Origin: a virus
Virus record (IMG/VR): IMGVR_UViG_3300031857_000047
Coordinates: 1-64,000 of that record
DNA length: 64,000 bases
Strand: one strand, 5' to 3'
Positions 3,666 through 64,000 of the stretch are shown here, in pieces. The position numbers were made by a program, and so were the translations under genes. Within the stretch, counting starts at the first letter, position 1. Each line of letters begins with the position of its first letter. Under the pieces are notes generated by a model. That model worked only from the letters and a program-made list of their open reading frames with translations, ran no database searches and was not told the origin of the DNA.

Positions 3666-3778
3666 TTGTAGATAAATGGATCACGTTTACGCAATTCTTC
3701 TAAACGTTTTTTCCATGCCTTGCGTTCTTGATATTTGTGCCACGGATATAAAATAAAATCTAATATTTTTTTAATCAC
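3662..3778 (-). CDS. 38-aa basic peptide (MIKKILDFILYPWHKYQERKAWKKRLEELRKRDPFIYK); not in ORF track
   Basis: GTG start overlaps the primase stop, TGA overlaps the carbamoyltransferase ATG (ATGA), and it fills the gap exactly. Confidence 0.7.
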   Translation of the reverse strand: MIKKILDFILYPWHKYQERKAWKKRLEELRKRDPFIYK

Positions 3779-4793
3779 TTTGATTCTCCAATAATGCTAT
3801 TTTGTTTAGCATCTTTCTTTTTTCAATTTCGATCTTTGCTGGATTTGCTGTTGCAGTTTTTATAGCATCAACCACAACAAATAACTTTCCATATTTAAGT
3901 ACTGCGTCTGCACAATCTTTAACTGTGTCGTCCCAAGTGGGAAATGCAATAGACCACCCTAGTTTTTTAGCTTGATCTATTAACATTGTGCCTGCTTTGT
4001 CTTGATCAGGTATAACAATCACTTCTTTACCTATATTGTTAATTATCCTTGCCTGTTGATCGGATATTTCATTAGTGAGTAATGCAACACCATCTATGCT
4101 AAGGGCATCAAACGGGCCTTCAACTACAAACAGATATCGATGTAGTTCTGATTGCTCGTCAACATTAAACACAAAGAAGGGATGTTGATCTGACAGATAT
4201 TTAGGCTTTCCTTCTCGAACCTTTCTAGCGGTATTGCCTACAATCTTGCCTTCATATTGAAATGGTATAATAACTCTATCAGCATAACCAGACAAGGGAG
4301 TCCAATAGAAATGCTTGCTAACAGGATCATATCCTCTATTAGCCACGTACTCAACTACTTCTATTAGTCGTTGTTCTTCATCGCTGGTTAATTTTGCGTC
4401 TAACCATTCTACTAAAGGCAATGCACCTTCGGGTAATGATTTTTCTGTAAAGGCGGGCTTTTCAACAAATGTTTCTGGTTGATAGTCTGTTGATTCAGTT
4501 TTAAGTGCTTCAAATATCAATTGCTTGATATCGTCGTCGTTGGCACCTAACCATTGGCACAGACTCTTAAACTTTGGAGTTATTGGGCTTCCGGGTTTCC
4601 ATCCTGTGGAGTACTTGCAATTGAAACAATTATAAACAATACTGTCATTGATAATGATACCGCCACGCTTTCTAGTATCATGAGCATGACCTCTATTATG
4701 ACAACAGGGCGCATTGAAACTAATCCAGCCACTAGGACTGGATTTTAATTTCGAAGGAAGAAGAGTTCTAAACTTATCAAGAACAAGAGTCAT
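3771..4793 (-). CDS. DNA primase (gp61/DnaG-like)
   Basis: N-terminal zinc finger (PCC...CFNC) and TOPRIM motifs VVEGPFDA, PDQDKAG, KDCAD. Confidence 0.88.
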   Translation of the reverse strand: MTLVLDKFRTLLPSKLKSSPSGWISFNAPCCHNRGHAHDTRKRGGIIINDSIVYNCFNCKYSTGWKPGSPITPKFKSLCQWLGANDDDIKQLIFEALKTESTDYQPETFVEKPAFTEKSLPEGALPLVEWLDAKLTSDEEQRLIEVVEYVANRGYDPVSKHFYWTPLSGYADRVIIPFQYEGKIVGNTARKVREGKPKYLSDQHPFFVFNVDEQSELHRYLFVVEGPFDALSIDGVALLTNEISDQQARIINNIGKEVIVIPDQDKAGTMLIDQAKKLGWSIAFPTWDDTVKDCADAVLKYGKLFVVVDAIKTATANPAKIEIEKRKMLNKIALLENQSD

Positions 4794-5647: not shown

Positions 5648-6019
5648 ATGAGAATCACAGAAAATTTACAAGAAAACTTTCCCTTTATAAGTGTCGTAAA
5701 CCACGTAGATCAGGAATACGTGGGCATAATTATCAACCAAGATTCTGCTATCACAAGCATGTATGATTATACACTCATTAAGACTGATCAGGAAAAAGCT
5801 AAGTTTTTAGAATTAGGTGAAGTGTGGTGGTGGGAATCAAATCGTCAAATTCCTATCAATATTTTCTTGTTAAGAGAAATACACGGATTTAGATATGCTA
5901 TTAGAAATTTTTCCACTAAAGATACCAAAGTATTGTTTGGTCCTTGCACTAGCCTAAACGATATTATAATTAAAAGAATTAAGCGTAAATCTATTACACT
6001 AATTAGACGGCCTACTTAA
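5648..6019 (+). CDS. Hypothetical protein
   Basis: 123-aa ORF filling the gap; WWWESNRQIPI motif. Confidence 0.7.
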   Translation: MRITENLQENFPFISVVNHVDQEYVGIIINQDSAITSMYDYTLIKTDQEKAKFLELGEVWWWESNRQIPINIFLLREIHGFRYAIRNFSTKDTKVLFGPCTSLNDIIIKRIKRKSITLIRRPT

Positions 6020-6572
6020 CACCAATAATCATTACACGATTAAAGGCCTTATCTTCAAATTCAAAACGTTTTATACCGTCGTATAGTATTTCATCTAGTG
6101 GATATTTATCCATTAATTCTCGAATAGCAGACATTGGATTCACATGATCGTCGTCGATCATATCGCTGGCTTGCAAACACACTACCGTTCCTTTGGGAAT
6201 ATTTTCAAACCATAACTTTGATTGCATGTGCTCGACGCTTGAATTAATCACTATATCTGGCTTAGGTTTATATTCAAGTAAATTTATGTCAGCAGTATGC
6301 GCCTTAAACTCCCAGGCTCGATAGACCCACAAATTATTAATTGAATCTGCAATAGCTTCGCAGGAAGGATCCTGATCAAAACTTCTAACTTCTAGCACAG
6401 GTATTTTACTACGTACACGAATTAATAAATTAGCAACAGCATACCATCCTGCTAGAATCCAAATTCGATAGCCGTCTTCAATAGGCCTATGCTCTTCTAG
6501 AGTTCGTTCTAATCTTTCAACGAGCCATAGCTTTGACTGCATCTGTGCTGTACTAAATGCATCAAAATCCAT
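6012..6572 (-). CDS. Class I SAM-dependent methyltransferase-like protein
   Basis: WILAGWY (motif I-like), SFDQD, DIVINSSVEH Rossmann pattern. Confidence 0.6.
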   Translation of the reverse strand: MDFDAFSTAQMQSKLWLVERLERTLEEHRPIEDGYRIWILAGWYAVANLLIRVRSKIPVLEVRSFDQDPSCEAIADSINNLWVYRAWEFKAHTADINLLEYKPKPDIVINSSVEHMQSKLWFENIPKGTVVCLQASDMIDDDHVNPMSAIRELMDKYPLDEILYDGIKRFEFEDKAFNRVMIIGVK

Positions 6573-7150
6573 TACGCATATCCATAACTAATCTGTTCGC
6601 AAATTAAATTCATCTGCACAACAATGGCAACTGCATAGGCAGTGGCATGACTCTTCTTAAAATAATAATCACCATTCTCTGGTTTCGTCCATACTTCCTT
6701 CATGATCGTAGTCCAGTCTTTCCCAATCAGATAACGTTTGGCTGGGCGGATCATAGCAAGGACGGCAGATAATTGTTCCACGGAAGTCGGTAGGGTCTTC
6801 CGGATTATATCTCCATGCCCGTTCAAATGAAATAACAGATTTACAAAGTCGTCTTGTTCCAATAGGTCCCATAGTGGTTCAGTCTCCATTAATTGAACTA
6901 GGTGTGTTTCGTCTCTTACACCTTTATAAATTCCAACATTAAGAAAATCTATTTTGAAATATTTTTCATCTTCTGCCTGTTCATATGGTATTGAACATAG
7001 GCCCGTGACAGGATCAACCGGCACAGGGTGCAAGTACACCCCAGTGTTATGTTTAACAAGTTTTCCGTTGTCTTTTCTACTGGCAGGGATATGTTTAAAC
7101 AAAGTTAATGCTTGATCTCTGTCTACGAAGTCTATGTCAATATCTGGCAT
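6572..7150 (-). CDS. Miniature family-C DNA polymerase (DnaE alpha) catalytic fragment
   Basis: PDIDIDF, KHNTGV, KIDFL, LAMIRP, YYFKKSHATAYA occur in DnaE order in only 192 aa. Confidence 0.82.
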   Translation of the reverse strand: MPDIDIDFVDRDQALTLFKHIPASRKDNGKLVKHNTGVYLHPVPVDPVTGLCSIPYEQAEDEKYFKIDFLNVGIYKGVRDETHLVQLMETEPLWDLLEQDDFVNLLFHLNGHGDIIRKTLPTSVEQLSAVLAMIRPAKRYLIGKDWTTIMKEVWTKPENGDYYFKKSHATAYAVAIVVQMNLICEQISYGYA

Positions 7151-7398
7151 TAATTTAGCCTTGTGGTTTCAAAAAGTAATAATGGTAATGTGTCTGCTAA
7201 AAATTGTGCATATTCTTCAGCATCCTCGTGATCGTTAAATCCCGAAAATTTTACATAGACATCGTCGGAGTCGTCAGCAACTACTACTTCGATGTCAACT
7301 TCATCACTGGAGATATGTTCTTCATTTTCAGCCAAGTCTACTTCTTCATCTTCTACAATTTCAGGTTTTGGCTCTTCTCGTCGCTTCTTAAAAATCAT
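7150..7398 (-). CDS. Acidic hypothetical protein
   Basis: 82-aa ORF coupled to both neighbours. Confidence 0.65.
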   Translation of the reverse strand: MIFKKRREEPKPEIVEDEEVDLAENEEHISSDEVDIEVVVADDSDDVYVKFSGFNDHEDAEEYAQFLADTLPLLLFETTRLN

Positions 7399-8081
7399 AA
7401 TATTTTCGCCTCCTTGATGACGTCTTTAACTAACTCTACATCTGCAGGCAAAGATTTAAAACGTCGAGACCAATGATTAGGATCAATAACTGGTCCAATT
7501 ATTTCTAACTGTTCGTCATTCATACGTTTTAACATTTCTTTTCCTGACTTGCTATTTAACACCATCCAAGGACTTATTAAACCCTCTTTAATATCATGCG
7601 TAGCTCTGTTTAAATTAACATATTGGAAGTAATGCTCCCAAGGAGCATTACTAGACTCACTCCAATCCATCATAGTTTTAATAGTTCTCTGTATTGCACC
7701 GTCTGCTGGTTCTATCTTGATTAGTTCACTGACGTATGTATCATACATCTCATCTCGGCACCAGTGATCTAATTTAATTCCACTCTTGATCACAAAGTCA
7801 ATGAATCTTTCTGGGTATATGGGATTAGTATTAACTAAAAAACTACCAAACTTTATAAAAGCTGTGTAATAGGGACTAGATGCAAATTCGTCAAATGTTT
7901 TAGCCTGTTTGGCCTTCTGCGTAAGTTCATAAAATCGTTGATAGGTTAATAAACCAGCTTGAACGTGCCTTTCACTTTTTGACATGTGCCGGCGTTTTTG
8001 TTCGCAGATATGCACTACCAAAGTTTTTTCTTTGGCAAACAACTTATTACAGTATTCGCACTTATAATTTAATGTCTGCAA
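7395..8081 (-). CDS. Hypothetical protein with N-terminal zinc finger
   Basis: YKCEYC...HIC motif; likely start is the TTG at 8081 (ORF track extends to 8114). Confidence 0.65.
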   Translation of the reverse strand: MQTLNYKCEYCNKLFAKEKTLVVHICEQKRRHMSKSERHVQAGLLTYQRFYELTQKAKQAKTFDEFASSPYYTAFIKFGSFLVNTNPIYPERFIDFVIKSGIKLDHWCRDEMYDTYVSELIKIEPADGAIQRTIKTMMDWSESSNAPWEHYFQYVNLNRATHDIKEGLISPWMVLNSKSGKEMLKRMNDEQLEIIGPVIDPNHWSRRFKSLPADVELVKDVIKEAKIL

Positions 8082-8541
8082 TTTGCTTTTTGTCCCAACC
8101 AAGGTCCTTAGCATACTCTTTAATCTCTTTGTCTGTGGTTATTGCAGCAAGTGTTTCTACATCCAACATTTTCATATTAGGAAACATCTCTGCTAAAAAC
8201 TTTTCTTTTTTATTTGTTTCTTTCTTTAGAGGAATATATTCTCTGTAGTGAGTTTTTCCATCTCCGCGACTGCATACACACAATGACTGCCAAACTAATT
8301 TAGGATGTTTTTGAATAGCGTTCCAATTTTTATTGTAGTATTCGTTAACAGTTAAAATAAAATGTTCTAGAACTTCAGGATCTCGAGACTTTGGAGCACT
8401 TATCCAACGATTAAGATTCCAAAAGTCGCCCTTAAGTTCTTTTCGTCCTTCATCATTAGCAGCATCCCATAAATCCTTATATCCCATATCAACTGATGGA
8501 ATAATTGTGTCGAATAGATCTAAGTGTTTATTTTTTGCCAT
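8062..8541 (-). CDS. Putative clamp-loader small subunit (T4 gp62-like)
   Basis: Size and pattern (FWNLNRWIS...YIPLKK...FLAEMFP...EIKEY) resemble gp62; recognised by eye only. Confidence 0.45.
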   Translation of the reverse strand: MAKNKHLDLFDTIIPSVDMGYKDLWDAANDEGRKELKGDFWNLNRWISAPKSRDPEVLEHFILTVNEYYNKNWNAIQKHPKLVWQSLCVCSRGDGKTHYREYIPLKKETNKKEKFLAEMFPNMKMLDVETLAAITTDKEIKEYAKDLGWDKKQIADIKL

Positions 8542-62350: not shown

Positions 62351-64000
62351 TTATGCATTTAAAAATAAGTTCAGTGCGACAGCATATCCATCAACACCAG
62401 CTTTAAAGTTCACTTTACTATTTATGTTAATCTGTACATTAGTTGTAGTTGTGATTTCTTGTCCTGCTATGAAAATAACACCTGCTGTTAACGTATTAAC
62501 ATTCAAGCTAGATCCGCCACCACCAATTTGACTTGAAATGTAGGCTTTAATAGCTCTTTGAGTTGGTATCACTGTATCCGAATCCGCCGTAAAGAACGGA
62601 TCTGTTGAGAATTCAGTGATTGTTGCTCCACCTCCGCCCAACGCTAGTTCACCCAAACTTAGTTCGTTCAATCCTGCTAGATTAAATGCATCTGCATTTA
62701 ATGTTGCAGTACCAGTTGACTGCTCAACGTTGAACAATCCACCAACTCTAAAATTACCGTCTTGGTCAGTTGATGTATAGAATACACGACCGCCATTTGA
62801 ATCAACTGTTTCGTTAGCAGGAATTGGGTCTGTTGTTGGTAGACCCGGATAATTGGTATTGGTTTGATTTCCAGTACCAATGTCTAAGAAGTCATGGCCT
62901 GTTAAACGCACCTGACTGTAGCGTCGTCTAATTGTAGTGACTGCGTTGTGGTCTGGTGATTCCAATGTTCCAACATCCGGACTTACTTGAATCTGAGCAC
63001 TGTACGGACCCACACCTGTTAGATCTCTTACGTTGACGATTCTGTAATAGACATCGTCAATTCCTGCAATTTGCAAGTTTGCGCCGCCTCTTGGAACGTC
63101 TGTAAGATCTTTGAAGTCAATAAATGCGCCAACTTGATAGTTGTCTGCGTATCCGTCACCTGTTACAGTTGTAGATGATGCTGTGTAATTTGCACCTCTA
63201 TTTGAATAGTTTGGTTGTGCCAATACTCCATCACCAATTCTAGCAACATAGGTTGCATCTGCACCTGTATTGTTAGGATCAACAATGGTCATTGTTGGTG
63301 CGCTGGTGTAATTAGATCCTGGCTCATGTACCCAAATTTCTCTTATGAGTCCGTCATTTACCCATGCTCTACCACGTGCTCTTGTACCTACATATACTGC
63401 TAGTGCTCTTCGACCACCTTGATTGAATGTAAGGAATCCTGCATTGCCTGTAGGGTTGCCGTAGGCCGCTGCTGAATATAATTTACCAATAGTTCCAGCC
63501 ATTGTGCCGGTGCCGGTAGTTAGTGTTACAACACTTCCTCCAACTGATGACGAAATATTAAAGCGTGTTGCACTGGCAATTGATTTAATAAAATATCGAG
63601 TGCCGCTTGACACGCCACCAATAACTCCAGAACTAAATTGTACAGTGTCATTAACTGATAAATCTGCGGTACTGGCCACTGTTAGGTAATTGGTATTAGC
63701 TTGATAGAACTGAGTCTTAACCGCTGAACTTCCGTATCCAACTACCACTGTGTTATAAGCACCATCGCTTGCACCAGCATTCCAGTTGGCTGTGGTAGTC
63801 ATAGTAATTTCTGTCCATGTTATACCATCTTCAGATATTGCTGATCTGCTGCTGTTATAGGCAGTTGCCACAAATACGCTACCGTTCCATGTTACATTTG
63901 TCCAACGGGCTGCTGCACCAGGTAATGTAGCAGCAGACCATGTAGTGCCGTTAGTGCTGTAGGCTGCAGATGTTGTAGTAGTACCACTGTTTCCAGCTAC
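62351..64000 (-). CDS. Large virion structural protein, C-terminal part (open beyond window end)
   Basis: Frame is open to 64000; propeller repeats; RLTGHDFLDIGTG...GGRVFYTSTDQDGNFRVG. Confidence 0.75.
   Translation of the reverse strand, partial: VAGNSGTTTTSAAYSTNGTTWSAATLPGAAARWTNVTWNGSVFVATAYNSSRSAISEDGITWTEITMTTTANWNAGASDGAYNTVVVGYGSSAVKTQFYQANTNYLTVASTADLSVNDTVQFSSGVIGGVSSGTRYFIKSIASATRFNISSSVGGSVVTLTTGTGTMAGTIGKLYSAAAYGNPTGNAGFLTFNQGGRRALAVYVGTRARGRAWVNDGLIREIWVHEPGSNYTSAPTMTIVDPNNTGADATYVARIGDGVLAQPNYSNRGANYTASSTTVTGDGYADNYQVGAFIDFKDLTDVPRGGANLQIAGIDDVYYRIVNVRDLTGVGPYSAQIQVSPDVGTLESPDHNAVTTIRRRYSQVRLTGHDFLDIGTGNQTNTNYPGLPTTDPIPANETVDSNGGRVFYTSTDQDGNFRVGGLFNVEQSTGTATLNADAFNLAGLNELSLGELALGGGGATITEFSTDPFFTADSDTVIPTQRAIKAYISSQIGGGGSSLNVNTLTAGVIFIAGQEITTTTNVQININSKVNFKAGVDGYAVALNLFLNA

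Follow-up and report, generated by a model that had tools for sequence, protein, structure and literature searches.

The window analysed here is the first 64 kb (64,000 nucleotides) of IMG/VR virus record IMGVR_UViG_3300031857_000047, which is 110,955 bp in length and has a CheckV completeness of 31%. Together, these two values suggest a jumbo phage with a genome of roughly 350 kb. On the minus strand at positions 6572-7150 lies an intact open reading frame (ORF) of 192 codons, the product of which begins MPDIDIDF. ORF inspection shows no in-frame start between its ATG codon and the preceding upstream stop codon. As set out below, this gene is assigned to the C-terminal half (here called the C-half) of a split, minimal DNA polymerase III alpha subunit (Pol III alpha), the protein known in bacteria as DnaE. 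The gene and its motifs are as follows, with residues numbered in the 192-amino-acid (aa) protein:

6572..7150, minus strand: C-half gene of a split minimal Pol III alpha; 192 aa, comprising the second part of the palm and a trimmed finger core (from the ORF, phrog_11778, the AlphaFold2 model and VIA)
7130..7144, minus strand: DIDID motif (D3, D5, D7), equivalent to the E. coli DnaE metal ligands D401/D403 plus a third conserved Asp
7034..7090, minus strand: residues 21-39, a beta-hairpin that contains the conserved H34-x-x-G37; the model places its strands at E21-27 and E30-39
6947..6955, minus strand: K66-I-D68, equivalent to E. coli DnaE K553 and the third catalytic Asp, D555
6737..6751, minus strand: R135-P136 in the finger motif IRPAK, the counterpart of DnaE FRPG at 638-641
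6632..6661, minus strand: FKKSHATAYA finger helix, aligned to FNKSHSAAYA; S167-H168 are equivalent to E. coli S759 and H760

At both ends of the gene, the stop and start codons of adjacent genes overlap as TAATG (CATTA on the plus strand, at 7148-7152 and 6570-6574). Since both junctions have this form, translational coupling on either side, as proposed in a preliminary description of this stretch, is plausible.

Relationship of the C-half to DnaE

The C-half matches the PHROGs family phrog_11778 ("DNA polymerase") with an E value of 1.6e-65, residues 3-186 aligning to profile positions 8-194 of 197. Pfam detects no family in the 192 aa, and hence none of PF02811, PF07733, PF17657 and PF14579, while the bacterial DnaE model TIGR00594 gives 18.5 bits against a curated cut-off of 434. 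A profile built from 90 members of the C-half family recovers DnaE from both E. coli (E 1.5e-5) and Taq/Thermus at about 1e-5, with the active-site motifs in register: KIDFL of the C-half aligns to KFDFL of E. coli DnaE (K553/D555), IRP to FRP (639-640), and FKKSHA to FNKSHS (757-760). The N-terminal MPDIDIDF of the C-half is the same as the MPDIDIDF of M. tuberculosis (Mtb) DnaE1.

The AlphaFold2 model of the C-half, made with the family alignment as input, has a predicted local distance difference test (pLDDT) score of 96.6 and a predicted template modelling (pTM) score of 0.89. When this model was compared with known structures, the 17 best Protein Data Bank (PDB) matches in Foldseek were all Pol III alpha chains. 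The top 15 in VIA were all C-family polymerases (Z 6.0-9.4), the next unrelated chain having a Z of only 3.1. For PolC, Taq DnaE, Mtb DnaE1 and E. coli DnaE, 185-190 of the 192 residues are aligned with Z values of 8.6-9.4. The relation of the C-half to C-family polymerases is far beyond chance.

Residues 1-190 of the model cover residues 401-784 of E. coli DnaE, leaving approximately 195 DnaE residues without a counterpart. The distance from D5 to D68 is 63 residues, compared to 152 from D403 to D555 in E. coli, a deficit of 89. In the model, a tight beta-hairpin (residues 21-39) closes the palm at the site where DnaE has a thumb of approximately 80 residues. The fingers are shortened as well: D68 and H168 are separated by 100 residues, compared to 205 for D555 and H760, so that approximately 105 finger residues are missing. 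The C-half has no PHP, clamp-binding or OB domain, and it also lacks the GRGS segment of the palm. The preliminary description had reported the intact 192-aa protein with its three aspartates and finger motifs, the loss of about 90 residues including the thumb, and the missing domains; these points agree with the profile mapping, the residue spacing and the Pfam search, respectively. It did not note the trimming of the fingers.

Conservation was assessed in a set of 92 sequences, consisting of the query and 91 representatives of 50%-identity clusters, which are 31-63% identical to the window protein. The putative metal ligands D3 and D5 are each present in 90 of the 92 and D7 in 88, while K66 and D68 are each invariant (92/92). 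H34 and G37 of the hairpin are each found in 89/92 sequences. In the finger motifs, R135 is conserved in 91/92, P136 in 92/92, and H168 in 88/92. S167, like these catalytic and finger positions, has a conservation of 95-100%. The catalytic residues of E. coli DnaE used for this mapping are as given in PMC8485763, in which H760, the equivalent of H168, is described as a steric gate against ribonucleotides that is invariant in Pol III alpha (Vaisman et al., PMC8485763). The ratio of nonsynonymous to synonymous substitution rates (dN/dS) of the C-half gene was calculated by the pairwise Nei-Gojobori method for 200 gene pairs taken from related loci in IMG/VR; the median is 0.13 and the range 0.05-0.35, which indicates purifying selection. 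The aspartates are thus retained among homologues rather than lost, and this conservation, together with the median dN/dS, bears out the earlier view that the gene is not debris.

Homologues of the C-half were identified by tblastn in 96 cultured jumbo-phage records at 38-57% identity. These include Atu_ph07 (57%), Sinorhizobium phage Phosso (55%), the PA5oct group (48%), XacN1, SCTP-2 and the RaK2/GAP32/121Q group (approximately 40%). The Phosso homologue is annotated as "DnaE-like DNA polymerase III alpha", and a Pol III alpha-like gene was already annotated in the Atu_ph07 genome paper. Metagenomic relatives form at least 7,977 clusters at 90% identity; among the matches listed, the best-scoring clusters are essentially all 192 aa in length. 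At 50% identity, the family has 440 representatives. Thousands of homologues, including those from finished genomes of cultured phages, are approximately 190 aa long and have their start no more than about 10 residues from the DxD motif. A megablast search with the first 20 kb of the window against cultured phages gave no match. The lineage of this C-half is one of uncultured phages that are very abundant in metagenomes.

The N-terminal half and natural fusions

A PF07733 search of related phages identified a separate gene of 155-180 aa (phrog_11127) that encodes the missing GRGS part of the palm and is here called the N-half. Its product ends ...VWGVGRGSSVASYVLYLIGVHK.DS.KYNL..EFL and spans PF07733 positions ~12-95, stopping just before the DxD motif with which the C-half begins. 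The N-half was found in Phosso, Atu_ph07, Paride, and two close IMG/VR relatives (G002 and G003). The two half-genes are far apart in each genome for which a distance was obtained:

Cultured phages: halves ~182 kb apart in Atu_ph07, ~44 kb in the PA5oct group, and ~34 kb in RaK2
G002: C-half 70% identical to that of the window; N-half of 168 aa; halves ~185 kb apart
G003: C-half 73% identical to that of the window; N-half of 155 aa; halves ~166 kb apart

Among cultured phages, the N-half is present in 109 records, of which 14 are Bacillus phages with a full-length DnaE. With those 14 set aside, the genus counts for the N-half correspond almost one-for-one with those for the C-half. The metagenomic abundance of the two halves is also equal, at approximately 8,000 or more 90%-identity clusters each.

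Three independent natural proteins contain both halves in a single chain: P0211 (375 aa), and P0391 and P0392 (both 376 aa; 78-81% identical, from different data sources). In all three, the N-half is joined to the C-half by an 11-residue linker (...EFIKDNKEGIYNIADFDIDT...). Bacterial DnaE models are colinear across the fusion junction, with residues 92-206 of P0211 matching TIGR00594 positions 302-417. Fused forms are rare (three clusters, versus thousands of split ones), and a scan of IMG/VR found no locus for them. These proteins nonetheless serve as a "Rosetta stone" in arguing that the products of the two genes function as a single enzyme. The preliminary description had proposed that the 192-aa protein makes up one half of a split minimal enzyme, and this is supported by the separate N-half gene, the matching phage sets, and these natural fusions.

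An AlphaFold2 model of the fusion stood as a proxy for the two-chain complex. It was made from alignment A5; alignments A2, A4 and A6 were discarded, as MAFFT had stacked the unrelated halves on each other. Residues 74-260 of the fusion model superpose on the whole E. coli palm (271-558) with a root-mean-square deviation of 3.3-3.5 Å and a Z of 9.3-9.6. The next, unrelated matches, at approximately Z 3, are nucleotidyltransferases of the Pol-beta fold (for example, MenT, Cid1, Trf4 and Rel).

In each of the five phages examined, the N-half is immediately followed by a conserved small ORF of ~74-156 aa, with the motif ...AVG(N)..VNARGD.LG..G.I..., which could encode another partner of the enzyme. 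Its positions at the loci extracted are:

L088:1247-1471, minus strand: small ORF beside the N-half
L089:1766-1993, plus strand: small ORF beside the N-half
L005-L007: small ORF beside the N-half, also present

In the two IMG/VR relatives, this ORF is followed by genes that appear by eye to be GroES-like and MazG-like.

Other truncated forms of phage Pol III alpha also appear to exist. P0404 (540 aa) and P0405 (551 aa) consist of a PHP domain and the N-terminal part of the palm, and then end. In the family phrog_11165, the match to the N-terminal palm falls close to the start of the profile (positions 24-111 of 782), which suggests a form that lacks the PHP domain, and phrog_13169 (463 positions) appears to be a further profile of a truncated form. 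These forms hint at more than one event of splitting or trimming of DnaE in phages.

Gene neighbourhood of the C-half

The genes surrounding the C-half are as follows:

7395..8114, minus strand: 239-aa upstream neighbour, phrog_11058 (E 4.2e-63), with a weak N-terminal C2H2-like zinc-finger signal
7150..7398, minus strand: acidic 82-aa ORF upstream of the C-half; its stop codon overlaps the C-half start codon (TAATG); related sequence at 47/83 related loci
6012..6572, minus strand: 186-aa ORF downstream of the C-half; its start codon overlaps the C-half stop codon (TAATG); present at 8/83 related loci
5648..6019, plus strand: small 123-aa gene, phrog_11637 (E 2e-32), downstream of the C-half on the opposite strand; 82/83 related loci
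3771..4793, minus strand: DnaG-type Toprim primase (Toprim_2, E 2.2e-5; phrog_47 DNA primase, E 1.6e-31)

The order 239-aa protein, C-half, 123-aa gene, virion protein, DnaG-type primase is kept in 70-83 of the 83 related loci, Atu_ph07, Phosso and Paride among them. The phrog_11058 gene is upstream of the C-half in all 83, including those of Atu_ph07, Phosso and Paride; the zf-C2H2 matches in its product are weak and fall under the Pfam cut-offs. In the same three cultured phages, the primase is followed by a DnaB-like helicase or primase/helicase gene. The genes of phrog_11058 and phrog_11637 flank the C-half even in Atu_ph07, Phosso and Paride at only 33-50% identity, and their products may be functionally tied to the enzyme.

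The 82-aa upstream ORF has no meaningful family match in Pfam or PHROGs. The 186-aa downstream ORF has zero matches in Pfam, PHROGs, NCBIfam and PADLOC; because it is present at only 8/83 loci, it is taken to be a recent lineage-specific insertion outside the conserved block. By eye, its product looks like a Rossmann-type methyltransferase. The PADLOC defence library identified nothing for the C-half, the N-half or their neighbours. A promoter and terminator scan of 5.5-13.2 kb was uninformative, with 25 promoter-like sites observed and 27.9 expected.

The left ends of the record and of the 270-kb G002 contig are alike in that the C-half is approximately 7 kb in, on the same strand. It may be that the two assemblies share a break point, such as a genome terminus or a repeat. 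Near the right end of the window, a 506-aa ORF (62351-63871, minus strand) contains repeated segments that also occur in several very large ORFs (open frames of 1,100-3,800 aa) of contigs from related phages; a single genome has as many as 11 matching places. It looks like a member of a modular repeat-containing protein family.

Interpretation and comparison with known systems

The evidence described above supports the assignment of the C-half to a minimal C-family polymerase, encoded by two genes and characteristic of T4-related "group 2.2" jumbo phages, as its C-terminal subunit. Homology, fold, residue conservation, purifying selection, co-occurrence of the halves, and natural fusions are shown by the analysis, whereas the association of the halves, their catalysis and their role are inferred. 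It is likely that they form a non-covalent, two-subunit, thumbless and distributive template-directed DNA polymerase that assists a family-B replicase. The C-half would supply the three catalytic aspartates, the lysine by the third Asp, and shortened fingers that include both the R-P motif and the K-S-H helix. The N-half (approximately 160-170 aa, with the GVGRGS...EFL end) would supply the triphosphate-binding helix-turn of the Pol-beta-like palm. The two would associate without an intein and rebuild one active site in an enzyme of approximately 360 aa that has no thumb, PHP domain, clamp-binding region or OB domain. From the missing thumb and clamp-binding parts, it is a reasonable expectation that this polymerase is non-processive. 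Its activity would be short, template-directed DNA synthesis (primer extension, gap filling or recombination-linked synthesis), with bulk replication carried out by the phage family-B polymerase.

Several points weigh against this reading. A literature search for experimental work returned one comparative paper from 2021 and genome announcements, with no biochemical or genetic test of either half among them. Approximately 100 DnaE finger residues are gone between the R-P motif and the K-S-H helix, a loss that dNTP and template binding may not survive. The confidence of the fusion model is only moderate (pLDDT 75.6), probably lowered by the shallowness of A5 over the C-part, and because the GRGS loop and the palm strands are precisely where it is low, the geometry of the rebuilt active site is not established. 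In addition, neither the N-half (six-frame regular expressions, tblastn with three N-halves, and PF07733) nor a family-B polymerase (PF00136) is found on the 111-kb, 31%-complete record itself, which likewise gave no match for the DnaE finger domain or an epsilon-like exonuclease. The best tblastn match to an N-half on the record, at 42.0-42.3 kb, lies in a 326-aa ORF without GRGS or any resemblance to the N-half, and was judged to be due to chance. In G001, a third relative (79% complete), the N-half is also absent from the contig, and synteny puts the gene just past the contig end.

Since the record is only 31% complete, what is absent from it is uninformative about the whole phage. The preliminary description had placed the GRGS half elsewhere in the genome and raised the presence of a family-B replicase. 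Both are borne out in relatives: the motif occurs as predicted in cultured phages, G002 and G003, and a family-B polymerase of approximately 890 aa is present in G001, G002 and G003, approximately 160 kb from the C-half in the first two. The record is collinear with G001 and G002, in that the offsets of a marker gene at 62-64 kb agree, and the C-half is at ~7 kb in both the record and G002. By this collinearity, the N-half (~185 kb from the C-half in G002) and the family-B gene (~160 kb from it) are expected beyond the 111-kb end, and it is from these relatives that we infer both in this phage.

A further-reaching version of the two-subunit enzyme, which we regard as doubtful, is that at approximately 360 aa and without a thumb it would be the smallest known template-directed C-family polymerase, its grip on DNA being provided in trans by a phage partner. 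A candidate for this partner would be the zinc-finger-like 239-aa protein, which is at every related locus examined, and the separation of the half-genes would mean that the enzyme is on only when both are expressed. If this were true, the system would be a tractable model for the origin of the bacterial replicase core.

We think it improbable, and less likely than the reading just given, that the C-half works alone or together with some protein not related to DnaE, its activity being of the kind that the preliminary description had suggested: template-independent nucleotidyl transfer, terminal transfer, or protein NMPylation (the transfer of nucleoside monophosphates to proteins). Such an activity would suit a thumbless protein with a complete acidic triad and lysine that is encoded far from the N-half, and the distant (~Z 3) structural neighbours of the fused form are themselves Pol-beta-fold nucleotidyltransferases. 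However, a palm that lacks the GRGS helix-turn has no triphosphate-binding element, and the two halves co-occur in matching phage sets and are fused in three natural proteins. The R-P and K-S-H motifs and the steric-gate histidine (H168, in 88/92) are, moreover, features by which DnaE selects deoxynucleoside triphosphates (dNTPs) on a template. Because the H760-equivalent histidine and the DnaE finger motifs are conserved, templated dNTP incorporation is favoured, and the template-independent activity is left unsupported.

More improbable still is a reversal of roles, with the split Pol III alpha as the main replicative polymerase of the phage and the family-B enzyme as its accessory. The primase/helicase neighbourhood of the C-half, the strong purifying selection on both halves, and their presence in nearly every member of the group are in keeping with a central role, but the enzyme has no thumb, clamp-binding motif, OB, PHP or proofreading domain. 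Close relatives carry the full-size, ~890-aa family-B polymerase, and so the split enzyme is probably not the main replicase, in agreement with the preliminary description. Iyer et al. (2021, PMC7824862) also report a T4-type clamp and clamp loader in group 2 phages.

Less credible again is the idea that the C-half is catalytically irrelevant in vivo. Its role would then be one of binding, for example to modulate, or act as a decoy for, the host Pol III holoenzyme or the replication proteins of the phage. It is a small protein that has lost much of the DNA-binding surface of DnaE, and no activity has been published for it. Yet near-invariant metal ligands, lysine and steric-gate histidine at 31-63% identity are hard to explain without catalysis, and the DnaE surfaces for the clamp, tau and epsilon are all absent. 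There is next to no chance that the gene is part of a full-length dnaE that was cut short through mis-assembly or a frameshift, or that is interrupted by an intron or a trans-splicing intein: the protein start does fall exactly inside a conserved DnaE segment, and cyanobacteria offer a precedent for splicing (see below), but thousands of homologues of the same length (~190 aa) start near the DxD motif, including in finished phage genomes, the upstream ORF is an unrelated acidic protein in a different frame, and there is no room for an intein, the fusions needing only an 11-residue linker.

The C-half is the most stripped-down relative of the catalytic subunit of the bacterial replicase. Its family is also one of the most abundant among those replication-related proteins of environmental jumbo phages that are still uncharacterised. 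Should the two halves turn out to be active together as a polymerase, the minimal catalytic core of C-family polymerases would be defined by them, and it would become clear what a T4-type replisome with a family-B enzyme gains from a second polymerase of the DnaE kind.

The closest known system is the split minimal Pol III alpha that occurs beside a family-B polymerase in group 2.2 jumbo phages, according to the available part of Iyer et al. (2021, Viruses 13:63, PMC7824862), where synthesis of one strand, or repair, is suggested as its role. The interpretation of the C-half as a split half was therefore already published in 2021 and is not a discovery of this analysis. The fusions, conservation statistics, median dN/dS of 0.13, steric-gate residue and high-confidence model appear to go beyond what that part of the paper contains. 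The published C-half (phrog_11778) is the half that binds Mg2+ and the template, and examples of it are Atu_ph07 gp074, Phosso gp437, PA5oct/Paride_0017 and those of RaK2-like phages. The window C-half resembles them in its full-length profile match, length, start point, motifs and neighbouring genes, and its relatives resemble them in having a distantly encoded N-half and a family-B polymerase. Nothing essential differs; the window copy has the coupled, lineage-specific 186-aa gene at its 3' side, and its partner is off the fragment.

Like bacterial DnaE and PolC (for example, E. coli DnaE 2HNH, Taq 3E0D and Geobacillus PolC 3F2B), the C-half has Pol-beta-like palm strands with the DxD motif and a third Asp. 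Its lysine, R-P motif and K-S-H finger helix likewise keep the order and the fold of those proteins. Unlike these proteins, it is approximately one-sixth of their size, has the GRGS part of the palm on another polypeptide and a hairpin in place of the thumb, and is without the PHP, clamp-binding, HhH, OB and tau-binding regions.

In cyanobacteria, dnaE is split into dnaE-n and dnaE-c, the products of which are joined by intein protein trans-splicing. The phage and cyanobacterial systems are alike in that a C-family polymerase is derived from two distant genes. In the phages, however, the split is inside the palm, just before the DxD motif, and the halves are minimal rather than together making up a full-length DnaE. 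There is no intein sequence at either junction: only two residues precede the DxD motif in the C-half, and the N-half ends directly after EFL. As DxD begins at residue 3 and the N-half stops after EFL, there is no space for intein halves.

Full-length DnaE is encoded by group 3.2 jumbo and Bacillus phages (for example, phage G, PBC2 and Kirov), which are matched by an N-half query at approximately 30% identity. In contrast to the split form, the DnaE of these phages is host-like and unsplit, retains the PHP domain, and is the primary polymerase of the phage.

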